Positions 5,372-51,289 of a stretch of 64,000 nucleotides of DNA are shown one piece after another. Position 1 is the first letter of the stretch. Each line of letters begins with the position of its first letter. Source of the stretch: a bacterium UBP1_UBA4783 (lineage in GTDB: Bacteria; Krumholzibacteriota; Krumholzibacteriia; Krumholzibacteriales; Krumholzibacteriaceae); assembly GCA_002403075.1 (NCBI GenBank), contig DHHB01000082.1, positions 32,213 to 96,212 of the forward strand, in the 5' to 3' direction. Made by a program: the position numbers and the translations under genes. The notes beneath the pieces were generated by a model, which was given only the letters and a program-made list of their open reading frames with translations, searched no databases and was not told the origin of the DNA.

Positions 5372-6970
5372 GTGATGGATCTCGTGGAACGGCAGAACGA
5401 CGTCGTCAGGGTGCGTTTCGCTCCGAGCCCGACGGGGCATCTCCACGTCGGGGGCGCCCGCACCGCCCTCTACAACTACCTCTACGCCCGCAAGAACAGC
5501 GGCGTCTTCGTGCTGCGCATCGAGGACACCGACGCGGCGCGCTCGACCCGCGAATCGTACGAGGGGATTCTCCGCGGCCTGCGCTGGCTCGGCCTCGAAT
5601 GGGACGAGGGGCCCGATATCGACGGTCCGTACGGCCCGTACGTCCAATCCGCGCGGAGCGTCCTCTACCACAGCGAAGCGGACCGGCTCCTGCGTGAGGG
5701 GAAGGCCTACCGCTGCTTCTGCGCCGCGGCGGAGCTCGACGCGATGCGGGCCGCGCAGGAGGCGAGGGGAGAGGCGCCGAAGTACGACGGCCGCTGCCGC
5801 TCTCTCGGCGAGACGGAGATCGAGGAAAGGCTCGCCGCGGGCGTACCGAGCGTCGTCCGCTTCGCGATGCCCCGCGACGGCGAGACGCGTTTCCGGGACG
5901 TCGTGCGCGGCGATTTTTCCTTCGGCAACGCGGAGCTCGACGACTTCGTTCTCATCAAGTCGGACGGGCGGCCGACCTACAATTACGCCGTCGTCGTCGA
6001 CGACGCGCACATGCGCATCAGCCACGTGATCCGGGGCGACGATCACATCTCCAACACGCCGCGCCAGGTGCGTCTGTACGACGCCCTCGGGTACCGGCTT
6101 CCCAAGTTCGCCCACCTGCCGATGATCCTCGGCGCCGACAAGACGCGCCTCAGCAAGCGCCACGGCGCGACCTCCGTCGACGCGTACCGGGACCTCCACT
6201 ATCTGAGCGAGGCGATGGTCAACTACCTCGCTCTGCTCGGATGGTCGTTCGACGGGAAACGCGAGCTCTTTTCGTTCAAGGCGCTCATCGAGGCCTTCTC
6301 CCTGAAGCGGGTCTCGAGCAATCCGGCCGTCTTCGACATCGCGAAAATGGAGTGGATCAACGCGGAGCATTTCAAGATGCTCCCTCCCGCGGAGAAGCTC
6401 GAGCTCGTCGCGGAGGCGCTCGAGGAAGAGGGGCTCCTGCCGCCCGCGTTCGAGGTCGATCTTTCCCGGCCCGTCGATCTCAAGCTCGTCGCGGGGAAGG
6501 AGCCGCTCAGGATCGACGCCATCGACGCCGCGAAAAAGGGCTTCGCGCGGGAGCTGCCGCGCCTCGCCCTCATCATAGAGGCGCTCGGCAACCGGCTGAA
6601 GCTCCTGAGGGACGTCCGGGAGCTCATGGGGTACTTCTACACGGACGATTTCGCCAGGGACGAAACCGCCGTGCGGAACCACCTCGCCTCGAAGGAGGCC
6701 GCATCCCGTCTCGAGGCGCTCGCCCGCGCGTACGAGGATCTGCAGTACTTCGACCGCCCCTCGGTCGAGGAGACGCTGCGCGCCCTCGCCGACCGTCTCG
6801 GGCTCCAGTCGGGGGAGCTCATCCATCCGTGCCGCGTCGCCCTCACCGGCAAGACGGTATCACCGGATATTTTCTGGGTCATCGTTCTTCTCGGCAAGGC
6901 GAAGACGGTCGAGAGGCTGCGCGCGGCGGCCGCGAACGCCCCGATTCCGCCCGCCGCGAAAGAGGGATGA
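5372..6970 (+). CDS. gltX: Glutamyl-tRNA synthetase.
   Basis: HIGH motif PSPTGHLHVGGART and KMSKS-type RLSKRHG are present. Length is 532 aa. Confidence 0.9.
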   Translation: MMDLVERQNDVVRVRFAPSPTGHLHVGGARTALYNYLYARKNSGVFVLRIEDTDAARSTRESYEGILRGLRWLGLEWDEGPDIDGPYGPYVQSARSVLYHSEADRLLREGKAYRCFCAAAELDAMRAAQEARGEAPKYDGRCRSLGETEIEERLAAGVPSVVRFAMPRDGETRFRDVVRGDFSFGNAELDDFVLIKSDGRPTYNYAVVVDDAHMRISHVIRGDDHISNTPRQVRLYDALGYRLPKFAHLPMILGADKTRLSKRHGATSVDAYRDLHYLSEAMVNYLALLGWSFDGKRELFSFKALIEAFSLKRVSSNPAVFDIAKMEWINAEHFKMLPPAEKLELVAEALEEEGLLPPAFEVDLSRPVDLKLVAGKEPLRIDAIDAAKKGFARELPRLALIIEALGNRLKLLRDVRELMGYFYTDDFARDETAVRNHLASKEAASRLEALARAYEDLQYFDRPSVEETLRALADRLGLQSGELIHPCRVALTGKTVSPDIFWVIVLLGKAKTVERLRAAAANAPIPPAAKEG

Positions 6971-8261: not shown

Positions 8262-10223
8262 ATGACGAGACGAGCGACGATTGCAGCCGCCACGCTGACC
8301 GCGGCCGTTACGGTCTTCGGGTGCGTCGCCGCCGCCGCGGGGGCGGAGGCGCCGCCGTTCGCCTTGAGGACGCTCGACGGGAGCGAGGCGGTCGAATCGA
8401 GCGCCCTCTTCGCCGAATACGGACACGTCTTTCTCGTGTTCTGGAGCGGGGGGTGTCCCCACTGCGTCGAGGCGCTCCGCGGGGCGCAGGCGTTTTACCG
8501 GCGATACGGAGGGCCTGACGTCGCGGTTGCGGGCGTCAACGCGGACGAGGGGGATGTATTGGCGTTGCGGCGGACGATCGAGACGAACGGGATCGCGTTT
8601 CGGCAGCTCCGCGATCCCGGAGGGATCGTGTCGGGGTCGTACGGCGTTCCGTTCGAGACGCTCGTGATCGTGCATGTCGCGGGCGGGACCGTCGCGGGGA
8701 CGCGCATCGATCCGGGAGGGGCCATCGACGGGGCGATGGAGGAGATGCTCCTCGGGGACGCGGCGCCGTCCCCGGACGCGCCCGAAACCACAGGAACCGG
8801 GGCCGCGGCGGCAACCGAAATCGCAGAAGAGAACGGCAAGGTTGTCTTCGGCTCGTCGATCCGCGGATGGTCGCGGATCCGGTTTCTCGATATCGATTCG
8901 CGCGGCGAGGAAGCCGCCGGGCTCTACGGCGAGCCGGTGCGGCCCGGCGGCCGGGTCGATTACCGTGTCGAAATCGAGGCCTCAAAACGCGTCGCGGCGC
9001 ATCTGCGCGCCGGCGCGCTCCTGCGGATAAGCAACGAGGGCGAGAGAGTGCTCGAGTCGGGGCCGAAGTATCTCGGCTCGCCGTTGGGGAGCGCCTTCGC
9101 GGAGATCGACGCGGCCGCGTTCACGTTCAGGCTCGGCTATTACTCGATATACATGACTCCCCTCACGCTCATGCGCTGGGATTGGGACGACAACCCGCGG
9201 GTCGGGGGCGACGCGGGATGCGGATGCGGCGCCTCGGCGGGGACGCTCCTCGTCGAGAGCCTCGACGATCTCGCGCCCGAACTCACCTTCGAGGGTGCGC
9301 TCGCGGGGTACGCGTTTTCGGGCGGGGAGATTCGGGCCTTTTACGCCATTCCGCGTCGAGCTCGGGAGACGCCCCGAGGCGCGTGGATAACGGGAGCGGA
9401 GGAGCGGGCGCGATACTCCCTCGAGATGTTCGGCGCCGAATGGCGCTGGCAGCGAGTCTCGCGCTTTTCCGGAGAAGCGTGGAAGCTCGGCGCGCGCTAC
9501 GTCGGAAGCCGCGAGCTCCGGCACAGCGTCGATTTCGTGGAGCTCGGCTACCCCGCGTACGATCCGTGGTGGGAATCGGGCATCGCGACCGTTTCGTTCG
9601 AAGCTCCCCTCGCCGGTTTCGTCCGGGCCCGGGCCGAAGGCGTCGTGTGGAACAGGGCGACCCAATACGGCCGCGGAGCTTCGGGGGACACGATCGCCTT
9701 CCGCGACGACGGCCGCGCCGGCGTCGCCGGCATCGTATTCGACGGACCGCGCGGCGCCTCGCTCACGATCGATTACCTGCTGCTCGATCCCGGTTTCTTC
9801 GCGCCCTTCGCGGCCCTTTCGTACGAGCCGAACCGGGAAGGGTATCGGGCGTCGGCGCGCGCGCCCCTCGCGCGCTCGAAGGTCGACGCCGATCTCTTCT
9901 ACAAACGCGTGCGCGAGCACACGCCGCTCTTCGGAGCCGAGCGGGCCGAAATAGAAACCGCGGGCATCTCGATCACCGGGGATCTCGGCGGCGGGTTCGG
10001 CGCGACGGCGGGCTGGATCGAGGAGAGCGACGAACGCGGCGGCGCGGTTTTTCCCTATAGCCTGTCGCGGCGGGCCGTCGAGGCGGGGCTGCAGTTCGGT
10101 TTCGCGAAGAGCGGCGTCGTCGAGCTGCGCTACAACCGCGTTCGAAGTGAAGAGTCCTCGCCGTCCGCGTCCTCGCGCGCGACGGCCGACCTGTACGCCC
10201 TCTACACGACGATCCGTTTCTGA
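8262..10223 (+). CDS. Secreted thioredoxin-like (TlpA/redoxin, CxxC) domain fused to a ~450-aa C-terminal domain ending in an aromatic residue, i.e. beta-barrel-like.
   Basis: Signal peptide, then WSGGCPHC redox motif in a TlpA-like N-domain. The C-terminal region is Gly/aromatic-rich and ends ...LYALYTTIRF. RBS GGGAGG lies 11 nt upstream. Confidence 0.6.
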   Translation: MTRRATIAAATLTAAVTVFGCVAAAAGAEAPPFALRTLDGSEAVESSALFAEYGHVFLVFWSGGCPHCVEALRGAQAFYRRYGGPDVAVAGVNADEGDVLALRRTIETNGIAFRQLRDPGGIVSGSYGVPFETLVIVHVAGGTVAGTRIDPGGAIDGAMEEMLLGDAAPSPDAPETTGTGAAAATEIAEENGKVVFGSSIRGWSRIRFLDIDSRGEEAAGLYGEPVRPGGRVDYRVEIEASKRVAAHLRAGALLRISNEGERVLESGPKYLGSPLGSAFAEIDAAAFTFRLGYYSIYMTPLTLMRWDWDDNPRVGGDAGCGCGASAGTLLVESLDDLAPELTFEGALAGYAFSGGEIRAFYAIPRRARETPRGAWITGAEERARYSLEMFGAEWRWQRVSRFSGEAWKLGARYVGSRELRHSVDFVELGYPAYDPWWESGIATVSFEAPLAGFVRARAEGVVWNRATQYGRGASGDTIAFRDDGRAGVAGIVFDGPRGASLTIDYLLLDPGFFAPFAALSYEPNREGYRASARAPLARSKVDADLFYKRVREHTPLFGAERAEIETAGISITGDLGGGFGATAGWIEESDERGGAVFPYSLSRRAVEAGLQFGFAKSGVVELRYNRVRSEESSPSASSRATADLYALYTTIRF

Positions 10224-10272: not shown

Positions 10273-10857
10273 TCACCGGTAGAGGCTCTTGATCATTCCC
10301 CAGGTGAAGCACTCCGCCGCGATCACCGAATCGAGCTTGAGGTAATCGGCCCAGAAAGCTCCCGCGATCGGGGAGCCGGAAACGTACTCGAGCCGCAGCG
10401 TGCACGAGCTTCCGTATATCAGCAGGGGGCTGCTCCCCGCGGCGTTTATAACCCGTCCACACACGGTGTAATCTCCGGTTCCGGCGAAGGTGAACGCGAT
10501 GGTTTGGAGCCCCGTGTCCTCGAGGTCGCTGTACGAGAGATGCATCGTGTAGGTGACGCCGATCTCCCCCCAACATGCGAGGGTGGCGGCGTAGGTGCCG
10601 AAGCTCGACATCGCGAAGTCGTATTCGACCCACTCTCCCGGCGCGCCGAGCCCATGAAGCCTCGTGTCCACCTTGCGGATGGGATCGAAGTCGACGTCGC
10701 GACAGCGGGAAAAATTCTCGGCCTCGAGCGTGACGCTGACGGCGCCGGCATCGGCCGGTATCGCGCAGAGACCCGCGACGGCCGCGAGAGCGGCGGCGAC
10801 GGCGAGCGTCACACGGCGCGCGCGCCGCCGCGGGCGTATGCCGTTTCTCGATTCCAT
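10273..10857 (-). CDS. Secreted beta-sandwich protein, CBM6/35-like or galactose-binding-like, paralog A. Possible Tat-type signal RRRARR.
   Basis: Signal peptide, then ...TLEAENF...GEWVEYDF...FWADYLKLDSV, a carbohydrate-binding-module-like pattern. It has the same length and pattern as the adjacent paralog. Confidence 0.5.
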   Translation of the reverse strand: MESRNGIRPRRRARRVTLAVAAALAAVAGLCAIPADAGAVSVTLEAENFSRCRDVDFDPIRKVDTRLHGLGAPGEWVEYDFAMSSFGTYAATLACWGEIGVTYTMHLSYSDLEDTGLQTIAFTFAGTGDYTVCGRVINAAGSSPLLIYGSSCTLRLEYVSGSPIAGAFWADYLKLDSVIAAECFTWGMIKSLYR

Positions 10858-10894: not shown

Positions 10895-11413
10895 TCACCG
10901 GTAGAGGTTCTTGATCGTTCCCCAGGAGTGCGATTCGGCTGCGATCGTCGATTTGAATTCGATGTAATCGGCCCAGAACTGCCCGCCTGAGATATACGTG
11001 AGCCTCGCGACGACCGGGCTTCCGTACATTTCGACGGCGCCGCTCCCGGCGGCGTACACCTCGGTGCCTCAATGGTTGCAATCGCCCTTGCCGGTGAACG
11101 AGAAGTAGATCGTCTGGTTTCCGATCACCGATCCGTCGTAGACGGTGAGGCTGAGGGAGTACGGCATGTTGAGCTCGCCCCAGCAGAGCATCAACACCTC
11201 GTAGACGCCGAAGTCGCCCGTCGTAAATGTATACTGCGTCCATTCTCCCGCGGCGCCGAGGCCATAGAGCCTGCCGCCGATCGAGCGGATGACGTCCCAA
11301 TCGACGTTGTGGCTGCTCGAGTACGTTTCCGCTTGGACGGTGATCTTGACGGCCTGCGCGGCTTCGGGGCGGCAGGCGAGGATCAGAACGAGCATGGCGG
11401 CGATCGCTTTCAC
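10895..11413 (-). pseudogene. Paralog B of the secreted beta-sandwich protein, interrupted by a single in-frame TGA (complement of 11069-11071) that aligns exactly with a Cys of paralog A. It is either a nonsense-mutated pseudogene or a selenoprotein with a CxxU motif.
   Basis: Translation continues in the same frame past TGA to ...FWADYIEFKSTIAAESHSWGTIKNLYR*, which aligns end to end with paralog A. Local context is GDCNH-TGA-GTEVY in B versus GDYTVCGRVIN in A. Confidence 0.5.
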
Positions 11414-31139: not shown

Positions 31140-31214
31140 GGGGGCTTAACTCAGCGGTAGAGTGCTATCCTCACACGATAGAAGTCGCAGGTTCAAATCC
31201 TGCAGTCCCCACCA
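31140..31214 (+). tRNA. tRNA-Val (anticodon CAC).
   Basis: Manual fold: acceptor GGGGGCU/AGUCCCC with one G:U pair, D-arm ACUC-AGCGGUA-GAGU, anticodon stem CUAUC/GAUAG with loop CUCACAC, T-arm GCAGG-UUCAAAU-CCUGC, CCA. Confidence 0.75.
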
Positions 31215-42830: not shown

Positions 42831-44456
42831 TCATTCCGCCGGCCGGAGGCGCCGGAGAGCCTCCGCGGCGCCGGCCTTGTCCGTCTCCGAGCCGACGGTG
42901 CCGAGCCTGTTCCAGCACGCGGCCGCGTCCTCGCTCCGCCCCGCGCGGGTATGCCATTCGGCGAGGAGTCTCAGGAGCTCGGGGTTGTCCGGAATGATTT
43001 CGATCGCCTGCCGCCAGTACGAGCCGGCTTCCGATTCCCGGCCGAGCGCGGCGGCGGCGAGCCCGCGGTTCTTGAATAGATAACCGCGCAGCGGTCCCTC
43101 GGCGGGGTCCGTTCGCTCCCGGGCGAGTCCCTCGTCGAGAATTCGGACCGCCTCCTCGGCCTTGCCGCGCCGGACGAGCAGGAGGCCGAGGTTGTTGTAC
43201 GGCGCGGCGAGCGACGGGTCGGCGTCGACGGCGCGGCGGAAATACGTTTCGGCTCCGTCGAGATCCTCGAGCCGCCAGCGCACGTCGCCGAGGTTGTAGA
43301 GCGCGGCGGCGTAGCGGGGCGCGAGCGAGACCGCGCGCCGGAGCAGGGAATCCGCTTCGGCCAACGCGCCTTTGCGGATGTAGAGCATGGCGAGGTTGTT
43401 CAGGGGGATTTCCCAACTTCCGTCGGCGATGAGGGCCTTCTGATACTCGATCTCCGCCTCAGGCATCCGTCCCGCGTCCTCGTGCGCGTGGGCGATGGAA
43501 TCGTGGCGCGCGGCGGCGGGACGGTCGCCGCGGGGGGGTGCGCCGCGGTTCATGACGAGGGCGATCGCCACGGCGGCGACGGCGGCCGCCGGGATCGCGA
43601 TTTTGAGGAGCAAGATCGAGCGCGCGCGCGGCGCCGCCGCCGACGGCGGCCGGAGAGCGGAGCTGAGAGCGTCGCGGAACGAGCCCGCGTCCGCGAAACG
43701 CGCGGCCGGATCCTTTTCGAGGGCGCGATCGAGCGCATCGGCGATCGATCCGGGGAGGCCGGGAACGAGCTCGAGGATCGAGCGCAGCGGATCGTTCGTG
43801 ATGGCGTACATCGTGGCGAGGGGATGCTCGCCGGGGAACGCCGGCTCCCCCGAGAGCAGCTCGTACAGCACCGCCCCGAGGGAAAAGAGGTCGCTCCGGG
43901 CATCGACCGGCGTTCCCCGGACCTGCTCGGGAGACATGTAGCGCGCGGTTCCGAGCGTGGCGCCGTCGGCGGTGAGGGACGTCTCGAAGCTCAGGCGGGC
44001 GATGCCGAAATCCATGAGCTTCGCCGCGCCGTCCCGCGTGACGATGATATTCTCCGGCTTCAGATCGCGATGCACGATGCCCTCGGCGTGAAGGCGCGAG
44101 AGCGCGTCGAGGACGCCGGCGATCCAGTCAGCGGCCGTTTCCCACGGCACCGGGCCGCGATGGATCACGGCGCGAAGCGTCTCGCCGTCGACGAGTTCCA
44201 TGGCGTACCAGGGCGCGCCGCCGTCCTCGCCCGCCGCGTAGACGGTGACGATGTTCGGGTGATTGATGCGGGAGCAGGCCTTCGCCTCGCGCACGAATCT
44301 CTCGCGGGCTTGGACGCCGAGAGACTCGGGGCGGATGACCTTGAGCGCGATTTCGCGATCGAGGGCGGCGTCGCGGGCCCGGTACACGATCCCCATGCCG
44401 CCCTCGCCGAGCGTGCCGATGATGTCGTAGCCTGCGATTCTCGCCGGGTCGGTCAT
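42831..44456 (-). CDS. Ser/Thr protein kinase with a TM segment and C-terminal TPR repeats.
   Basis: Hanks motifs [22 protein letters not shown], then a hydrophobic segment and TPR-like repeats. Confidence 0.8.
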
Positions 44457-44487: not shown

Positions 44488-45444
44488 TCAGCGCCGTTCG
44501 AGGAGCCGGTTGTATTCCTGGAGCGCCTCGACGGTCCGTCCCGTTTCGGCGTAGAGACGCGCGAGGATCGTGCGCAGCGCGGCGTTATCCGGGTCCGCCT
44601 CGATCGCGAGGCGCATCTCCGCCACGGCGTCGTCGAGCAGCCGGTAGCTGAACAGCGCGCTTGCGCGAACGATACGGCGCGCCGATTCGCTCGGAGCGCG
44701 CTGAGCCTCCGCGGTCGCGAGCAGGGTGTCGAGGGATCGCTCCTCGGCGGCGGACAGCACCTCGAAGAAACCGGCCGGAGTTCTCACGGGCGGAACGCGA
44801 AGCGGGTCGGTCGTCTCGAGGGTCCAGGAGTAGATCGTGCCGGGTTCGAGGGGCGGCTCGCCGGCCGGATACTCCGCCGCGCTCGTTCCCGCGACGTCCG
44901 CTTGCCACCGAAGGCCCGATTCGTCGTAGAGCTTGAGGCGCAGCTCCGTCGACGGGTCGGCCGCGGACCATCGGAAGCGCGGATGTCCTCCGCGGACGGC
45001 CGTCCGGCACGGCGCCTCGAGGCGGATATCGTCCGTCGCCGCGCCCGAGCGGAGCGCGGCGAGCGTGCTCACGCCTTCGGCGTCCTTGAGCGTGAGAAAG
45101 CTCTGCACGGACGCGAACGTTTCGCCCTCCGCCGGCGCCGCGCGTCCCGGGACCGGTCCCCCCGCCGCCCGCACGACGAGACTGCTCGAGGCGCCGACCG
45201 TGATCCACGTGCCGTTTTGAAAATGAATCTCGGCTTCCGCTCCGGGACCGGTGCGGATTTCGTCCCCCGCGCGAAGGGAGAGGCCGTACGCGCCGGGCGC
45301 CGTCGTGCCGTCCGTACGCCGCACCGTGACCTCGCCCGTGCACGAGAGGAGGAGGGCGTCGGGCGGCTGCGTGCGGGCCTGCGAAACGGCAATCGTCGCC
45401 CCGATCGCGGCAATCATCACGAACGACGAAAGAATAGCTTTCAT
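44488..45444 (-). CDS. Secreted protein with a C-terminal TPR region; upstream partner of the kinase.
   Basis: Signal peptide MKAILSSFVMIAAIGATIAVSQA. C-terminus ...AEMRLAIEADPDNAALRTILARLYAETGRTVEALQEYNRLLE. Confidence 0.5.
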   Translation of the reverse strand: MKAILSSFVMIAAIGATIAVSQARTQPPDALLLSCTGEVTVRRTDGTTAPGAYGLSLRAGDEIRTGPGAEAEIHFQNGTWITVGASSSLVVRAAGGPVPGRAAPAEGETFASVQSFLTLKDAEGVSTLAALRSGAATDDIRLEAPCRTAVRGGHPRFRWSAADPSTELRLKLYDESGLRWQADVAGTSAAEYPAGEPPLEPGTIYSWTLETTDPLRVPPVRTPAGFFEVLSAAEERSLDTLLATAEAQRAPSESARRIVRASALFSYRLLDDAVAEMRLAIEADPDNAALRTILARLYAETGRTVEALQEYNRLLERR

Positions 45445-45618: not shown

Positions 45619-46668
45619 TCAGCGTTCCCTCCGCGCGCCGCCGCGGACGGCCGGGCCGTCGAGCCGGCGCACTTCCTCGGAGTACCGTTTCTGCATCGAG
45701 AGCAGCTTCGGATCGCCGTCGGTCTCGAGGGCGTCGGGGCAGCGGTTCGAAGCGGAGATCTCGAGCGAATCGGCGCCGAAGGTCACCGTCACCTCGGTGA
45801 AAAACTGCTCCTTGGCGCCCGTTTCGACGACGGCCGTGCGGCCCGCGCGTTCGAAACGCGTCGTCCGCCCCGTGCGGTGTCCGTTCAGGACGACGTCGAT
45901 CCCCGGCACCTCGCGGGCGAGCGCCACGCTCTCCTCCCAGCCGAGGTGGGAAATGGCGACGACGACGTGGCAGCCGTCCGCGCGGAGCCTCGCCGCCGAT
46001 TCGAGGGCGGCGAGTTTCGGGTCGATCGCGGCGTAGCGATTCGAGCCGTCCGCGAGGCCGCGGTGCCATGGGGGAGGAAACACGACGGCGAAAACGCCGA
46101 CGCGGAGCCGTCCGCGCGCGCCGGAAGGGGTCCGGACGCCGGGGAATTCCTTCACGATCTCGCCGGGAAGCGCGCGCTCGCGCGTGCGCCGGTCGAGGAG
46201 GTTCGCGGCGAGGAGCGGCGGCGCATGAGGTCCCGCGCGGGAGCGGAGCTCGTCGAGGCCGATGCGGAGCTCGCTTTCGCCGACGCCCACCGCGTCGTAC
46301 CCGAGCAGCCGCATCGAACGGAACAGGTAGCGGTCGTTCATCTCGCGGTGACGCACGTCGGCGCCGAAATAGAAATCGCCCGTATCGAGGAGGAGGGTCG
46401 GCCGTTCACGGCGCCGCGCGCCGACGAGGGAAGCCCACCGGGCCATCCCGCATTGGTCCCGCTTCCTTCAACCGCAGGGTTCTCGGTAGCCGGACAGATT
46501 GCTCGTGAAGAAGATGCCGAGCTCGGTGCCCGGAGCGCACGGCTCCGGGGCGCGATCCTGGCGGGCCATCCGCACGCGGAGCGGCACGTAGAGGGCGAGC
46601 AGCAGGAGAAGGACGACGGCGGCGGCGTTCCGGAACGCTGCGGCGCTACGGATTCTTGGTTTTTCCAT
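45619..46668 (-). pseudogene. Secreted 5'-nucleotidase/metallophosphoesterase-like protein with degenerate metal ligands. One in-frame TGA (complement of 46468-46470) splits it into ORFs 46468..46668 and 45619..46446 in the same frame. It is either a pseudogene or a Sec-containing protein.
   Basis: The N-terminal fragment has a signal peptide and ...IFFTSNLSGYREPCG, then TGA, then ...RKRDQCGMARW...TLLLDTGDFYFG...LLGYDAVGVGESEL. This parallels UshA, where the corresponding motifs are HTNDHHG and GNHEFD. The two fragments are in the same frame, separated only by TGA. Confidence 0.5.
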
Positions 46669-49600
46669 ATTTCTTGAGCTTCGAATAGACGGTCGGTTTC
46701 GAGATGCCGAGGAGCGCGGCGGCCTTCGTCTTGTCGCCGATCTTCTCGACCACCTTGCTCACGATCATCCCTTCCACGCGCGGAAGGATCGGATCGGCGG
46801 CCGACAGCTCGGTGCGTTCGACGAGCTCCTCGATCGTTTGCTCGAGGGTCGCGCGCTGTTCGGCGCGGGCGATCTCGCGCCGTTTCGCGATGGCGTCCGG
46901 CAGATCCTCGGGCAGGATCGTCTCGCGCCGCGCCGCGATGATCGTCCGGTTGACGATGTTCTCGAGTTCCCGCACGTTCCCCGGCCAGTCGTAGGCGACG
47001 AGGCGGGCCATCGCCTCGGGAGAGATCTTCTTCACGGGCATGCCGTAGAGACGGCAGTAGACGGCGAGGAAATGGAGGGCGAGCGGCTCGATGTCCTCGG
47101 CCCGCTCGCGGAGATCGGGAATGCGGATGGGAAACACGTTGATGCGGTAGTAGAGATCCTCGCGGAATCTTCCCTCGCGGACGAGGGCGAGGAGATCCTT
47201 GTTGGTGGCGGTGATGATCCGCACGTTCGTCGAGATCAAGTGCGAGCCGCCGACGCGGTAGAAGGTCCGGTTCTCGAGCACGTGGAGGAGCTTCGGCTGG
47301 AGCGCGAGCGGCATATCGCCGATCTCGTTCAGGAAGATCGTTCCGCCGTTCGCCGACTCGAAATGGCCGATCCGCAGCTTGTGGGCGCCGGTGAACGCGC
47401 CCCGCTCGTGGCCGAAGAGCTCGCTCTCGAGGAGCTCGGCTGATATCGCCGCGCAGTTGAGCGCCACGAACGGCTTTTCCGCGCGGGGGCTGCGGCAATG
47501 GATCGTTCTCGCGACGAGGTCCTTGCCGGTGCCGTTCGATCCCGTGAGCAGCACCGTGGTGTCCATGTCCCTGATGCCGTCGAGAAGCCCGTACAGGTGC
47601 CTCATCGGGGCGGAGGAGCCGATCACGTCCGGGAACGCCGCGCGCTTGCCGGGCCGCGCGGGCGGGGCGTTCGCCTCGATGCGCGATCGCTCGAACCCCT
47701 CGATCCGATCGGCGAGGAGCGCGCGTTCGAGGGCGAGCGCCGCTTCCTGGCAGAAAGCGACGAGCAGACTATGGTCGCCGTCGGCCGTTCGTTCTCCCCC
47801 CCGCGCGGAGTCGAGGTACAGGAACGCCGTCGCGTCGCCGCCGACGCGCAGCGGCACGCACAGGATGCGCGGGCGTTCCGCGAGAAACTCGGGCGGCACC
47901 TTGCCTTCGGGGAGCGTCGAACGCGTCGTGTCGAGGGGGTATCCGAGCCGCACGGCGACGGCGAGCACGGCCGCGACGCGCCGGTCGGCGAGCGTCCCCG
48001 AAGCGGGGAAGTCGCCGCTCGCGGCGGCGATCCGGAAGGCGTCCTTGCCGTCGGCCTTGCGGATGAGCGCCGCGCGCTCCATGCCGGTGATGCGGAGCGC
48101 CGTATCGACGACGAGGTTTTCGATTTCGGCCGTCCCCCTCGCCGAGCGCACCATCGCCGCGAGGCGGCAGAGCGCGTGGAAGCGGTCGGTATCCGATACG
48201 ATTTCGCCGCGGCACAGCGGCGAGCGCTTTTCGACGCTCTCCCGGAGGCGGCGCACCGGAAGCGGCACGTGCTCGCTTTCGCCGACTGCGGAGAGCGAGC
48301 GGAGGAGGTACTCGCGGGCGAGCGGCTCGTTCCCCTCGGCGAGCGAGAGCGATCCGATCTCGGCGGCGACGCTCGCCGCCGCGTTCGTTCGGCCGAGGAG
48401 CGAGAGCTCGAGGCTCCCGCTCTCGAGCTTGAACCGTCCTTCCTCGACCCGTCCCTGCGAAATGAGTATCCGCCCTTCGAGGATCGTGAGGAGCACCGCC
48501 TCGAGGCGCGAACCGATCCGCTGGTTCAGGGCGCGCGCTTCGGCGAGATGCTTCGCCGCCTCGGGCGCGTCCCCCGAGGCGAGGCGCAGCTCGCCGAGCT
48601 TCCGCAGCACGACGGCGCGCTCGCGGATCGATTTCGTCCGATCGCAGAGGTCGAGGTCGCGCTCGTAGTACGCCGCCGCCTTCTCGCCGTTCCCCTGGAG
48701 AAACTGGATCTCGCCCATCGTGCCCCACACCTCGGCGAGGAGCTGCTGGTTGCCGATCGTCTCGGCGAGGTGCGCGGCCGTGGCGCAGCTGCGCTCCGCG
48801 TCGCGGTACTTCTCCGTCTCGAGATACACGAGGGCTTGATTGAGAAGCGCCGCGGCGAGCCCGGGGAGGTTCTCGTGGCGCTTCTTGATCTCCATGCTCT
48901 TCGCGAAGCATTCGAGCGCCTCGGCGTACGCGCCGAGAGAACGGTACACGAGGCCGAGGTTGTTGTACGTCGCGGCGACGCCGATCTCGTCGCTGCAGTC
49001 CTCGCGGAGAGCGAGACAGCGCTTGTAGCAGAGGATCGCGTCCTCGTACTTGCTGCGGTTCCAGTTGATCGTTCCCATGAGGTTGTACGACTGGGCGATC
49101 TCCGCAGGATCCCTCTTCTCGTCGAGGAGCCGGTGCACGAGAAGACAGTGCTCCCACGAACGGTCGAACGCTCCGAGGCGGTAGTGGATCCAGGCGATGT
49201 CGTTGTAGAGCTTCGCGCGTTCCTGCGAGAGGAGCTCGTCGCCGTGCATCTCGAGCGCTTTCTCGAGGAGCTCCTGCGCCGCGGGAAACTCCCCCCGTTT
49301 TTCGAGGATCTCGCTCTCGCGGCGCACCGCTTCGACGGCGAGGTTGCGGAAACGGGCCGTCTCGGGCTCGCGGTCGATCTCCTCGCGGCAGCGGCGGTAG
49401 AAGGATTCCGCCGCCGAGGTGTTCCCCGTCAGCGCACAATGGGCGCCGAGATCGAGGAGGAGGGCGTAGCGCGCGTCGGCTGGGAGCGCGAGATCGAGAC
49501 CCTCCTCGAAATAGCTCTCGTGAAAGCAGCGCAGCGCCGCGAGCCGCTTGCGCCGCATGAAATGCTGCAGGATCTCGCGGCCGCGCAGCGCCGCTTCGGC

Positions 49601-51289
49601 GCGCGCGCCGCTCCGCACGAGGTGGACGTAGGAGCAGATCGCCGGCACGCCGCGACGTTCGTCGAGGAGCCGCGCGATATTCCGGTGGATCGACTCGAGC
49701 CGCTCGGCGGGAAGCGCCTCGATCGCCGCGCGGGCGATCGAACGTCCCGCCACGCGGTACAGCATGGCGAGGGCGCCGTTCGAGAGCGGCGAGACCCCCG
49801 CGCGCGTACGCACGAGACCGCGGGCCTCGAGGCGCCGGAGCGCGTCGAAGACGCTCTGCTCCTCCGGGGCGTAGACGGCGAGAATGAAGGAAAGCGGCGC
49901 TTCGAAATCGAACGCCGAGAGGAACGCGAGCACGGAGCGCTCCTCTCCGCCGAGCGAGTCGAGGAAGAGCCGGGCGCCCGCAGCCGGCGCCGCGCCGTTT
50001 TCCTCGATCGCCGCGATGCGGTCGAGCCGCTCGAACGCGAACGAACCCGCCGCCGTCCCTCCGGAGGCGCTCTCCGGAGCGATGCGATCGAGCAGCCGGC
50101 GGCGTTCCGCCGCGGAGAGCGGCGGCAGGGCCACCTCCCGGACGTCGACGCCGCGCTTCCCGATCTCCTCGCGTATGCCGTCCGCGAGCCGGGAGCCGCC
50201 GTCTTCGCCCACCGCGGCGACGGTGAGACGGCAGCGCTCCGCCGCCTGGCACAGGTAATCGATCACGCAGCATTCGAGGAGCGGTTCGAGGGCGTGGTCG
50301 TCGACGAGGGCGAAGTCGGCGCCGTCGACCGCCTCCTTTTCGGCGACGTCTTGAAAGATCGATTGGTCGCCGGCGATCGAGCCGCGCCGGTATCCCCATT
50401 CGTCGACGAGGATACGCTCGAGGCGCTCGAGAAAATGAGTTTTCCCCTCGCCGTCCGCTCCCCTGAGCAGGATGAGCGCGCGTTCGTCGTCGCGGGCCTT
50501 GAGGGCGGTCTGCTTCACCGCTCGAAGCGCGGCGGCGGGAGGATGGACGTTGACGGTCCGCGCCGGGAAGATCCGGTCCGGAGACACCGCCGTCTCCGCG
50601 AATGCGGCGAGCGCCTCGATCGCCGCTCGGTAGTCGCGGCCCCCTGTTTCCGGACCGAGCGCCTTGAGGGCGTCGGCGACGCGCTTGGCGCGCTCCGCTT
50701 CGCCGGATTCGAAGTGGCGGGCCGCCGTCGAAAGGAGCTCGGCCGCGGCGCGAAGGTCGACGTACGGCGTCTCCGGCGCCGCGCCCTCCCGCGCCCCGGA
50801 GCGGATGATCGAGAGCACCGGCCCCGGAATGAGATAGGCCGTCGGCAGGACGCCGGGCGCGTCGTTCGCCATGTACATCGATTCGAGGGAGAGGTTCGAA
50901 AAGGCGCATCCGTCGGCGAGGCACGCGAGCACGTAGGAGAGAAGGGCGCGCGTGTGCGCGAGCGCGCGGGCCGGCTGCATGAGAGAAAGCGCCTTGGTGA
51001 GCGGCGCGATCTCGACCCGCGGGACGAGGAAGGTGACCGCTCCGTTCGCCTGCTGCAGCGAAAGCGTCGGCGACGCGATCGCGCCGTGCCGCGTGAACAG
51101 GCGATCCCGCATCCGTAGATCGTCGATCGAAACGGAAAGGTTCGCGGGGATTTCGAGAGAGAAGAAGAAATACTCCTTCTCGCTCAGGCTGTCGCTGACG
51201 GAGCATCCGTGCCACGGCGGAAATTCACCGAGCGTCGTGCGGACGATATAGCGAGAATCGAGCGGGATTCGAGCCTTTTCGTTGTTCAT
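46646..51289 (-). CDS. Giant (1547 aa) sigma54-dependent transcriptional activator: N-terminal ~250-aa unknown domain, STAND/AAA_16-type P-loop NTPase, long TPR array, GAF-like region, sigma54-interaction AAA+ domain, Fis-type HTH.
   Basis: Walker A GADGEGKT and multiple TPR repeats. Sigma54 AAA+ motifs GSNGTGKD, the GAFTGA signature (ELFGHERGAFTGA), FLNEIGDMPL and PGNVRELEN. C-terminal HTH AAALLGISKPTVYSKLKKYG. Confidence 0.8.
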   Translation of the reverse strand: MNNEKARIPLDSRYIVRTTLGEFPPWHGCSVSDSLSEKEYFFFSLEIPANLSVSIDDLRMRDRLFTRHGAIASPTLSLQQANGAVTFLVPRVEIAPLTKALSLMQPARALAHTRALLSYVLACLADGCAFSNLSLESMYMANDAPGVLPTAYLIPGPVLSIIRSGAREGAAPETPYVDLRAAAELLSTAARHFESGEAERAKRVADALKALGPETGGRDYRAAIEALAAFAETAVSPDRIFPARTVNVHPPAAALRAVKQTALKARDDERALILLRGADGEGKTHFLERLERILVDEWGYRRGSIAGDQSIFQDVAEKEAVDGADFALVDDHALEPLLECCVIDYLCQAAERCRLTVAAVGEDGGSRLADGIREEIGKRGVDVREVALPPLSAAERRRLLDRIAPESASGGTAAGSFAFERLDRIAAIEENGAAPAAGARLFLDSLGGEERSVLAFLSAFDFEAPLSFILAVYAPEEQSVFDALRRLEARGLVRTRAGVSPLSNGALAMLYRVAGRSIARAAIEALPAERLESIHRNIARLLDERRGVPAICSYVHLVRSGARAEAALRGREILQHFMRRKRLAALRCFHESYFEEGLDLALPADARYALLLDLGAHCALTGNTSAAESFYRRCREEIDREPETARFRNLAVEAVRRESEILEKRGEFPAAQELLEKALEMHGDELLSQERAKLYNDIAWIHYRLGAFDRSWEHCLLVHRLLDEKRDPAEIAQSYNLMGTINWNRSKYEDAILCYKRCLALREDCSDEIGVAATYNNLGLVYRSLGAYAEALECFAKSMEIKKRHENLPGLAAALLNQALVYLETEKYRDAERSCATAAHLAETIGNQQLLAEVWGTMGEIQFLQGNGEKAAAYYERDLDLCDRTKSIRERAVVLRKLGELRLASGDAPEAAKHLAEARALNQRIGSRLEAVLLTILEGRILISQGRVEEGRFKLESGSLELSLLGRTNAAASVAAEIGSLSLAEGNEPLAREYLLRSLSAVGESEHVPLPVRRLRESVEKRSPLCRGEIVSDTDRFHALCRLAAMVRSARGTAEIENLVVDTALRITGMERAALIRKADGKDAFRIAAASGDFPASGTLADRRVAAVLAVAVRLGYPLDTTRSTLPEGKVPPEFLAERPRILCVPLRVGGDATAFLYLDSARGGERTADGDHSLLVAFCQEAALALERALLADRIEGFERSRIEANAPPARPGKRAAFPDVIGSSAPMRHLYGLLDGIRDMDTTVLLTGSNGTGKDLVARTIHCRSPRAEKPFVALNCAAISAELLESELFGHERGAFTGAHKLRIGHFESANGGTIFLNEIGDMPLALQPKLLHVLENRTFYRVGGSHLISTNVRIITATNKDLLALVREGRFREDLYYRINVFPIRIPDLRERAEDIEPLALHFLAVYCRLYGMPVKKISPEAMARLVAYDWPGNVRELENIVNRTIIAARRETILPEDLPDAIAKRREIARAEQRATLEQTIEELVERTELSAADPILPRVEGMIVSKVVEKIGDKTKAAALLGISKPTVYSKLKKYGKTKNP

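Follow-up and report, generated by a model that had tools for sequence, protein, structure and literature searches.

A UGA codon probably read as selenocysteine in a short UshA-like gene of Krumholzibacteriota

How should a reading frame be interpreted when a single stop codon divides what otherwise looks like one protein? The question is raised by a locus in a stretch of 64,000 nucleotides (nt) of DNA from the bacterium UBP1_UBA4783, a member of the Krumholzibacteriota (assembly GCA_002403075.1, contig DHHB01000082.1, positions 32,213 to 96,212; hereafter the window). On the minus strand, a frame opens at ATG 46668, runs for 66 codons to a TGA at 46470..46468 and continues free of further stops until a terminal TGA at 45621..45619. 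Translation gives FFTSNLSGYREPCG before the internal TGA and RKRDQCGMARWASLV after it (junction IFFTSNLSGYREPCG-TGA-RKRDQCGMARWASLV), placing the codon in the context EPCG-U. An original prediction had described the locus as a 5'-nucleotidase-like gene split by one UGA, and had attributed the interruption either to selenocysteine (Sec) insertion or to recent pseudogenization; its coordinates, frame and C-G-U context proved correct when the frame was re-read. We consider it highly probable that the locus is one selenoprotein gene, in which a downstream Sec insertion sequence (SECIS) causes UGA to be decoded as Sec; its product, of the UshA fold, may be a redox protein.

The internal TGA is maintained throughout the phylum. 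Ortholog DNA taken from species-representative genomes provided 22 close loci (36-96% identity, Krumholzibacteriota where named), all of which carry TGA at the identical codon. PCG-TGA is also present in four distant relatives, one from the Latescibacteria (L027) and three from the Acidobacteriota (L036, L045 and L052). In the homologs P0032, P0033 and L074 (Planctomycetota), Cys is found in place of Sec (PCGC), and two distant full-length homologs of 317 and 337 amino acids (aa) are continuous across the position: LKPCGCHTPKGGLARVASL. Upstream of the TGA and in the same phase, each of the 22 loci encodes a basic n-region, a hydrophobic segment and the motif IFxTxxLxGYREPCG. With GMARWASL downstream, coding conservation follows one frame on both sides of the codon. 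The G+C content at third codon positions (GC3) is 0.86 upstream of the TGA and 0.82 downstream, in a window of 67% G+C. The orthologs are co-linear across the TGA, which bears out the earlier description of a single split gene, and the two pieces are never found apart in the ortholog loci. In the alignment A2, which comprises 28 sequences, D21, G23 and D24 are invariant, in line with the retention of Asp98 in motif II (Table 1).

An equivalent of the N-terminal hydrophobic segment is present in every full-length ortholog. In the window protein it probably serves as a signal peptide or signal anchor, by which the product would be exported or held in the membrane; no obvious AxA cleavage site was seen at this segment.

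Some variation is tolerated around the codon. L006 and L014 carry PCS-TGA, and Cys73 (QCG) is restricted to the subgroup L001-L011 plus L015 and L021. In L011 (Krumholzibacteriia metagenome-assembled genome, MAG, JBGPBA010000003.1, L011:5977), REPTS-TGA replaces REPCG-TGA and extra Cys residues occur at positions +3 and +6 after Sec. Since Thr-Ser-Sec can stand for Cys-Gly-Sec, what is essential appears to be Sec itself and not the pairing of Cys with Sec.

The same comparison bears on the suggestion that a recent nonsense mutation has struck a decaying nucleotidase paralog, or that the TGA is an error of sequencing or assembly. The degenerate metal-binding motifs described below would be in keeping with decay, as would the lack of a Pfam match (none at E <= 1 for the fused window protein) and the frameshifted appearance of one ortholog locus, L021. 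However, 26 other sequences, drawn from three phyla, have TGA at this very codon, amino acids are strongly conserved on both sides of it, and even the degenerate motifs show conservation (all PCGU forms have GE), unlike what decay would produce. Moreover, the identical sequence has been assembled independently at least seven times, and the orthologous TGAs, which come from NCBI, ENA, JGI and Logan, do not go back to a single assembly pipeline. The phylum-wide TGA and the independently assembled, identical gene calls exclude sequencing error and recent pseudogenization, a reading to which we give hardly any credence. Of the two options offered originally, Sec is the one that stands; the pseudogene falls to the conserved TGA and to purifying selection on both of its sides.

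L021 itself (6001-6808, CAVVEY010000006.1) shows several apparent frameshifts, both in the ortholog and in the upstream regulator gene, with a 174-codon frame and fragmented tblastn matches. It is either a decaying copy or the product of insertion-deletion errors in a long-read assembly. Its TGA and SECIS are intact despite the frameshifts.

Could UGA be read as an amino acid other than Sec? Near-cognate decoding stimulated by a hairpin, or a lineage-wide change of code, might insert Trp, Cys, Gly or Arg. A stable hairpin past a stop codon can indeed stimulate read-through, and no Sec machinery was found in the window. However, TGA is the terminal stop of the gene itself, of 15 of the 19 full-length orthologs and of most of the long, high-GC3 open reading frames (ORFs) of the window. 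It is an ordinary terminator in a standard code, which excludes a genetic-code change and upholds the earlier argument against global UGA reassignment. The occurrence of Cys in the homologs that lack the TGA is the classic Sec/Cys signature. In addition, the hairpin has features specific to bacterial SECIS (a three-nt loop that begins with GG, 28 nt from the UGA), and the family is already catalogued as a selenoprotein family. Decoding as a standard amino acid is thus most improbable.

It might also be supposed that translation ends at the UGA, yielding a 66-aa membrane peptide, and that a second gene starts at the AUG of M75, eight codons on, yielding a cytoplasmic protein of 275 aa. Public gene callers annotate exactly these two ORFs separately, on at least seven independently assembled contigs (JGI, ENA, Logan). 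A protein search with the fused sequence retrieved 31 close homologs, whose lengths range from 220 to 288 aa and for the most part fall within 260-275, and all 14 of the close homologs placed in the full alignment start at MARWASL, just after the TGA. The AUG is, furthermore, invariant in the 22 Krumholzibacteriota orthologs. In contrast, the distant Sec forms have CUC or CUG (Leu) at this position, a suitably spaced Shine-Dalgarno-like sequence is lacking before the AUG in most orthologs, and the AUG lies within the hairpin described next (A25, U26 and G27). The two pieces invariably share a frame, with a separation of exactly seven codons. Finally, the fold needs strand beta1 and the loop that are encoded upstream of the TGA, a region in which the full-length Cys homologs are continuous. 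Two separate genes are therefore very unlikely.

Decoding of UGA as Sec, as favoured here, calls for an RNA signal. The hairpin in question begins 18 nt past the UGA and is a local element of the minimum free energy (MFE) fold. Counting the U of UGA as 1, its lower stem pairs G22-C43, G23-C42, G24-C41 and A25-U40; U26 is bulged, and the upper stem (G27-U39, G28-C38, C29-G37, C30-G36 and C31-G35) closes a loop made up of G32, G33 and U34. The codons of G74-L81, which contain it, are nearly invariant over the 22 orthologs (GGG AUG GCC CGG UGG GCU UCC CUC). In a gap-free alignment of 27 Sec-form sequences, pairing is preserved in 94.2% of the cells and three pairs are altered on both sides, as when G27-U39 becomes C27-G39 in L027. 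None of 500 shuffles matched the observed values of the hairpin, and its register surpasses all those slid by -3 to +3. Sequences of three phyla share an identical core, GGCCC-GGN-GGGCY. At conserved residues with at least four synonymous codons, synonymous-codon entropy is 0.39 bit in codons 74-81 as against 1.35 elsewhere (6 versus 51 columns; Mann-Whitney p=1.8e-4). The frozen synonymous sites of codons 74-81 indicate that the RNA is constrained in its own right, in addition to the protein.

The published model of the bacterial SECIS (bSECIS; PMC13188914) specifies an apical loop of 3-9 nt with a G in the two leading positions, an upper stem of 4-16 base pairs (bp), a distance of 16-37 nt from UGA to loop and an MFE of -7.5 kcal/mol or below. 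In the window the loop, GGU, has 3 nt and starts with GG; the upper stem has 5 bp, followed by the bulge and 4 further bp; the distance is 28 nt; and the MFE is -14.0 kcal/mol for a 29-nt segment. As judged by comparison of sequences, there is little doubt that the UGA would be Sec-decoding and the SECIS functional.

Codon 78 (46434..46436, minus strand) is composed of the variable last base of the loop and the first two G of the 3' stem. It specifies Trp (UGG) or Arg (CGG or AGG) in every Sec form and Val in the Cys forms. Residue 78 is Trp or Arg in Sec forms because the SECIS core fixes an NGG codon.

A different structure had been put forward originally, namely a stem GGAAGC...GCUUCC enclosing CGGG-AUGG-CCCG. 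This nested stem exists in the window but is not conserved, and was rejected as the SECIS. It is 73% paired overall and 62% in the outer helix, with covariation no better than that of slid controls. It shares 3' nucleotides with the conserved hairpin.

The kind of protein encoded is a known one. Among NCBIfam models, NF041198 (UshA_like_PCGU, UshA-like (seleno)protein; 5.9e-30, 104.3 bits) matches best, ahead of SoxB (TIGR04486, 51.8 bits, below the 550-bit cut-off), CpdB-type enzymes and UshA-like (seleno)protein family 2. The alignment to NF041198 is limited to its N-terminal half (positions 19-269 of 519) and includes its P-C-G-U/C motif, present here as EPCG-TGA. The C-terminal half of the model, from about position 344 to 518, is unmatched, and the window protein stops at 349 aa. 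Other Krumholzibacteriota orthologs score 105-132 bits and the Acidobacterial short forms 140-161 bits. The nature of the missing half is revealed by L027 (L027:5977 on, Latescibacteria MAG CAVXFV010000013.1), which encodes a 491-aa PCG-U protein with 258 bits over the whole of NF041198. Its C-terminal 170 residues correspond to positions 344-518 of the model, contain four CxxCH and match Pfam Cytochrome_C554. L027 thereby shows that what NF041198 covers in its C-terminal half is a cytochrome domain, not a 5'-nucleotidase C-domain. No CxxCH haem-binding motif is found in any of the six frames of the whole 64-kb window, and the window gene is a short, cytochrome-less form of the UshA-like CxU kind.

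UshA-like (COG0737) CxU selenoproteins were among the more abundant families of the Global Ocean Sampling selenoproteome (Zhang and Gladyshev 2008, PMC2398784) and are listed in reviews and catalogues (PMC9312934, PMC13188914); family 2 is defined by CxxU (PMC13188914). The gene is of this known CxU kind and falls in a short subfamily overlooked by curated models and by all public gene calls. Our literature search for selenocysteine in Krumholzibacteriota or Latescibacteria found nothing relevant.

Among the relatives, genes of the Cys form (PCGC; L081:4897-8473+ and L083:3370-8329) lie directly downstream of a separate gene for a Cytochrome_C554/MtrC-like multihaem cytochrome. They are followed by cystathionine beta-synthase-like (PALP+CBS) and gamma-lyase-like (Cys_Met_Meta_PP) genes, a sulfur-metabolism neighbourhood.

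To what fold is the CxU motif attached? We modelled the Cys homolog P0032 with AlphaFold2 from a 32-sequence alignment (mean predicted local distance difference test score, pLDDT, 86.5; predicted template modelling score, pTM, 0.85). The top Foldseek matches of this model in the PDB are the N-terminal metallophosphoesterase domains of E. coli UshA, CD73, YfkN and CpdB (E about 1e-24, TMq 0.72-0.77). The window protein aligns by sequence with the same PDB chains, at best with 3e-12. Taken with the NCBIfam result, this agrees with the earlier assignment to 5'-nucleotidase/metallophosphoesterase-like proteins; on the basis of the model, the window protein has the calcineurin-like N-domain fold of the 5'-nucleotidase/UshA/SoxB superfamily. 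The C-terminal substrate-binding domain of 5'-nucleotidases (PF02872) was not found by Pfam at E <= 1, and the window protein is too short for it.

The metal motifs are degenerate, as had been noticed before: in alignments with PDB sequences GESEL falls on GNHEF and TsNlS on TtDiH. With DxH, GNHE and the second His of GHxH replaced, the dinuclear phosphoesterase site is gone. The residue at motif I varies within the Krumholzibacteriota clade (N, Q, E or G). Motif III begins with GE in all PCG-U forms and reads GE(R/M)D in other PCGU relatives. Strand beta1 normally ends in DxH. By alignment, C-G-U would lie in the loop after this strand, next to the former metal site.

What might such a protein do? 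During translation, the UGA at 46470..46468 would be decoded as Sec when the hairpin at 46449..46428, with its GGU loop and bulged U, recruits SelB carrying Sec-tRNA(Sec). The product, of about 349 aa, would be exported or membrane-anchored and would carry Cys-Gly-Sec beside the former metal site. A selenenylsulfide/selenolate centre at Cys65-x-Sec67 may carry out redox or chalcogen chemistry instead of nucleotide hydrolysis. Electrons might be exchanged with c-type cytochromes in the long forms and in those with an adjacent cytochrome gene, and with another partner in the window form. We infer the redox function from the invariance of Sec and from the fusion or adjacency of the parent family to multihaem cytochrome c554-like proteins; it is a tentative assignment, which may well turn out otherwise. 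The original conclusion that the protein is probably non-catalytic does not follow from the loss of the phosphoesterase site, since the invariance of Sec points to a new active site, probably one for redox chemistry. An inert protein is unlikely because it is costly to keep an invariant Sec by means of a dedicated RNA element.

Several observations weigh against the interpretation as a redox selenoprotein, or against parts of it. The fold energy of the region is unremarkable for 67% GC (z = 0.14 for a 91-nt fold), and the Cys-form genes fold here into GC-rich hairpins of similar energy. Because this z is not significant, the case for the hairpin rests on conservation and covariation and not on energy. 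Covariation is thin, given that the element is near-invariant within the phylum and the double changes come from four distant sequences. The Cys-form hairpins, however, have no GG loop, and within the same eight codons four synonymous differences separate two Cys-form genes of 77% identity, which speaks for the SECIS. As to the family, the 104.3 bits obtained with NF041198 are well below its cut-off of 275 bits, and NF049981 (UshA-like selenoprotein family 2) gives 36.4 bits over positions 1-91, below the cut-off of 140 bits; its motif is CxxU, that of the window protein CxU. The absence from L011 of the Cys of CxU weakens a strict selenenylsulfide mechanism. In the P0032 model the CGC loop (residues 46-49) has a pLDDT below 50. 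The redox function, moreover, is arrived at indirectly, in the manner stated above.

The genes for Sec decoding should also be considered. No tRNA-Sec was detected in the 64-kb window (ARAGORN and an Rfam gathering scan) or in the 22 ortholog loci (ARAGORN); the Rfam scan of the window returned four tRNAs and no SECIS family. SelA, SelB and SelD were not recognised among the long window ORFs, read by eye, nor seen in the ortholog flanks; the GTPases of the window, judged from their sequences, are Obg/DRG-like and RsgA-like. This too counts against Sec. However, these 64 kb make up little of a genome of about 4 Mb, so that the missing sel genes neither support nor refute Sec decoding.

The window contains another in-frame TGA that lends indirect support to Sec decoding in this organism; the original prediction had mentioned it, and it was located at 11071..11069 on the minus strand. 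A tandem paralog of the interrupted gene (10273..10857, minus strand) shows 46% identity over 165 aa, continuing across the TGA, and has a Cys opposite it: GDCNH-U-G(TEVY) aligns with GDYTV-C-G(RVI). At +19..+33 after the TGA there is a hairpin, GCCGC-CGGGA-GCGGC, with CGGGA as its loop. The two genes probably form another Sec/Cys pair, one that has not been catalogued. They belong to a different gene family; tblastn found no paralog of the 45619..46668 gene inside the window. Adjoining the pair, at 8262..10223 on the plus strand, is a gene whose 653-aa product has a hydrophobic segment and an AhpC/TSA-redoxin domain (GGCPHC) in its N-terminal part, and beyond them a long C-terminal region to which no Pfam family matches.

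Table 1. Coordinates in the window of the putative selenoprotein gene, its elements and other genes discussed
Feature	Position	Strand	Basis or remark
Putative selenoprotein gene, complete, 349 codons including Sec67	45619..46668	minus	One frame with a single internal TGA; predicted UshA-like/5'-nucleotidase N-domain fold
Putative Sec-encoding UGA codon	46468..46470	minus	TGA in 27/27 aligned Sec-form sequences; Cys aligned in homologs
CxU motif, Cys65-Gly66-Sec67 (TGC GGT TGA)	46468..46476	minus	PCG/PCS/PTS-TGA in 22/22 orthologs
N-terminal hydrophobic segment A15-L30, AAAVVLLLLLALYVPL	46579..46626	minus	Read from sequence; preceded by basic n-region
Predicted bacterial SECIS hairpin: GGGA, bulged U, GGCCC; loop GGU (46439..46437); GGGCU, UCCC	46428..46449	minus	Codons G74-L81 (GMARWASL)
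Motif I, DxH replaced by N-L-S			Lost; PDB alignment, TsNlS on YfkN TtDiH
Motif II, GD kept, Asp98 (DTGDF)	46375..46377	minus	Aligns with DnGD of solved enzymes
Motif III, GNHE replaced by G130-E-S-E133	46270..46281	minus	Lost; GESEL on GNHEF of CpdB, T. thermophilus 5'-nucleotidase and YfkN
Single His motif, H241 (SHLG)			Kept; PDB alignment
GHxH replaced by GHRT			First GH kept, second His lost; PDB alignment
Upstream gene, 1547-aa TPR-GAF-sigma54-AAA+-HTH activator	46646..51289	minus	Pfam Sigma54_activat, TPR, GAF, HTH_8
Downstream gene, 318-aa protein with N-terminal hydrophobic segment and C-terminal TPR	44488..45444	minus	Pfam
Ser/Thr kinase-TPR gene	42831..44456		Follows the 318-aa gene; Pfam
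Second in-frame-TGA gene, 172 codons	10895..11413 (TGA 11071..11069)	minus	Hydrophobic start; no Pfam match

The gene has a constant upstream neighbour (Table 1). Its start overlaps the stop of the 1547-aa activator gene by 23 nt, and wherever an ortholog locus includes upstream sequence, as 21 do, the activator is the immediate neighbour on that side, with 46-98% identity (the L010 sequence begins inside the gene). The conserved overlap suggests co-expression of the selenoprotein with a sigma-54 regulator. It is conceivable, albeit rather unlikely, that the short form is an extracytoplasmic sensing partner of the TPR-GAF sigma-54 activator and reports the periplasmic redox or chalcogen (sulfur or selenium) status. 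If so, a Cys-x-Sec module on a dead nucleotidase scaffold would signal to transcription and to the Ser/Thr-kinase cluster, and selenium availability would gate expression of the module by way of UGA decoding.

On the downstream side, the order of the 318-aa gene and the kinase gene is repeated in L009-L011, and the 318-aa protein is encoded further downstream in L018-L020 and L022. A tRNA-Val(CAC) gene is found downstream of the selenoprotein gene in nine orthologs, within about 100 nt in L002-L008 and L021 and at about 3.5 kb in L001. In the window, tRNA-Val(CAC) is at 31140..31214 on the plus strand, 14 kb from the selenoprotein gene; the intervening genes include those of the 318-aa TPR protein, of the Ser/Thr kinase and of a 2388-aa protein. 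A gene block appears to have been inserted here between the selenoprotein gene and the tRNA, in a variable, tRNA-adjacent region.

The selenoprotein kind is already known; what is new is the member and its short subfamily. The main value of the locus is in the correction of annotation, in a SECIS shared across phyla and in leads to function. In public records (31 database clusters, including NCBI annotations of MAGs) these proteins appear as a "hypothetical protein" or "5'-nucleotidase" of 260-275 aa starting at M75. Such truncated records lack both the export signal and the Sec active site, a systematic error that the present reading would correct. The reading also extends the UshA-like CxU family to the Krumholzibacteriota, defines a short, cytochrome-less subfamily and implies the use of Sec by this organism. 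One SECIS core is kept across three phyla, with the RNA element dictating the amino acid at position 78. Fusion or adjacency to cytochrome c554, together with the coupling to sigma-54, provides leads for a family that has no function assigned in the selenoprotein catalogues cited above.

How does the locus compare with known systems? The fdhF element has a bulged U and a GGU loop. Like the E. coli fdhF-type SECIS and the bSECIS consensus (PMC13188914, Fig. 2 legend), the window hairpin lies within the coding sequence just past the UGA and has a small GG(U) loop, a bulged U below the upper stem, a 28-nt spacing and an MFE under -7.5 kcal/mol. It differs in that its sequence is unrelated to that of fdhF and its loop is only 3 nt long, and it is a predicted, not an established, SelB site. 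With NF041198, the window protein shares a 5'-nucleotidase-type N-domain whose loop following strand beta1 bears the P-C-G-U motif, the interchange of Sec and Cys at this motif, and the same SECIS core in the same codons. Unlike L027, it has no C-terminal multihaem cytochrome c554-like domain. Whereas the Acidobacterial and Latescibacterial forms (YTGD/SSD) keep the Asp of motif I, this position is variable in those from Krumholzibacteriota, and the Krumholzibacteriota short form is always coupled to the gene for a sigma-54 activator. NF049981 likewise has an UshA-like N-terminal region with Sec, and is distinguished by its motif. In comparison with UshA, CD73, CpdB, YfkN and SoxB, the predicted N-domain fold is retained along with GD, SH and the first GH residue, whereas DxH, GNHE and the second GHxH residue are replaced, PF02872 is absent, a Cys-x-Sec has been added, and the scores are far under the cut-off of every enzyme model.

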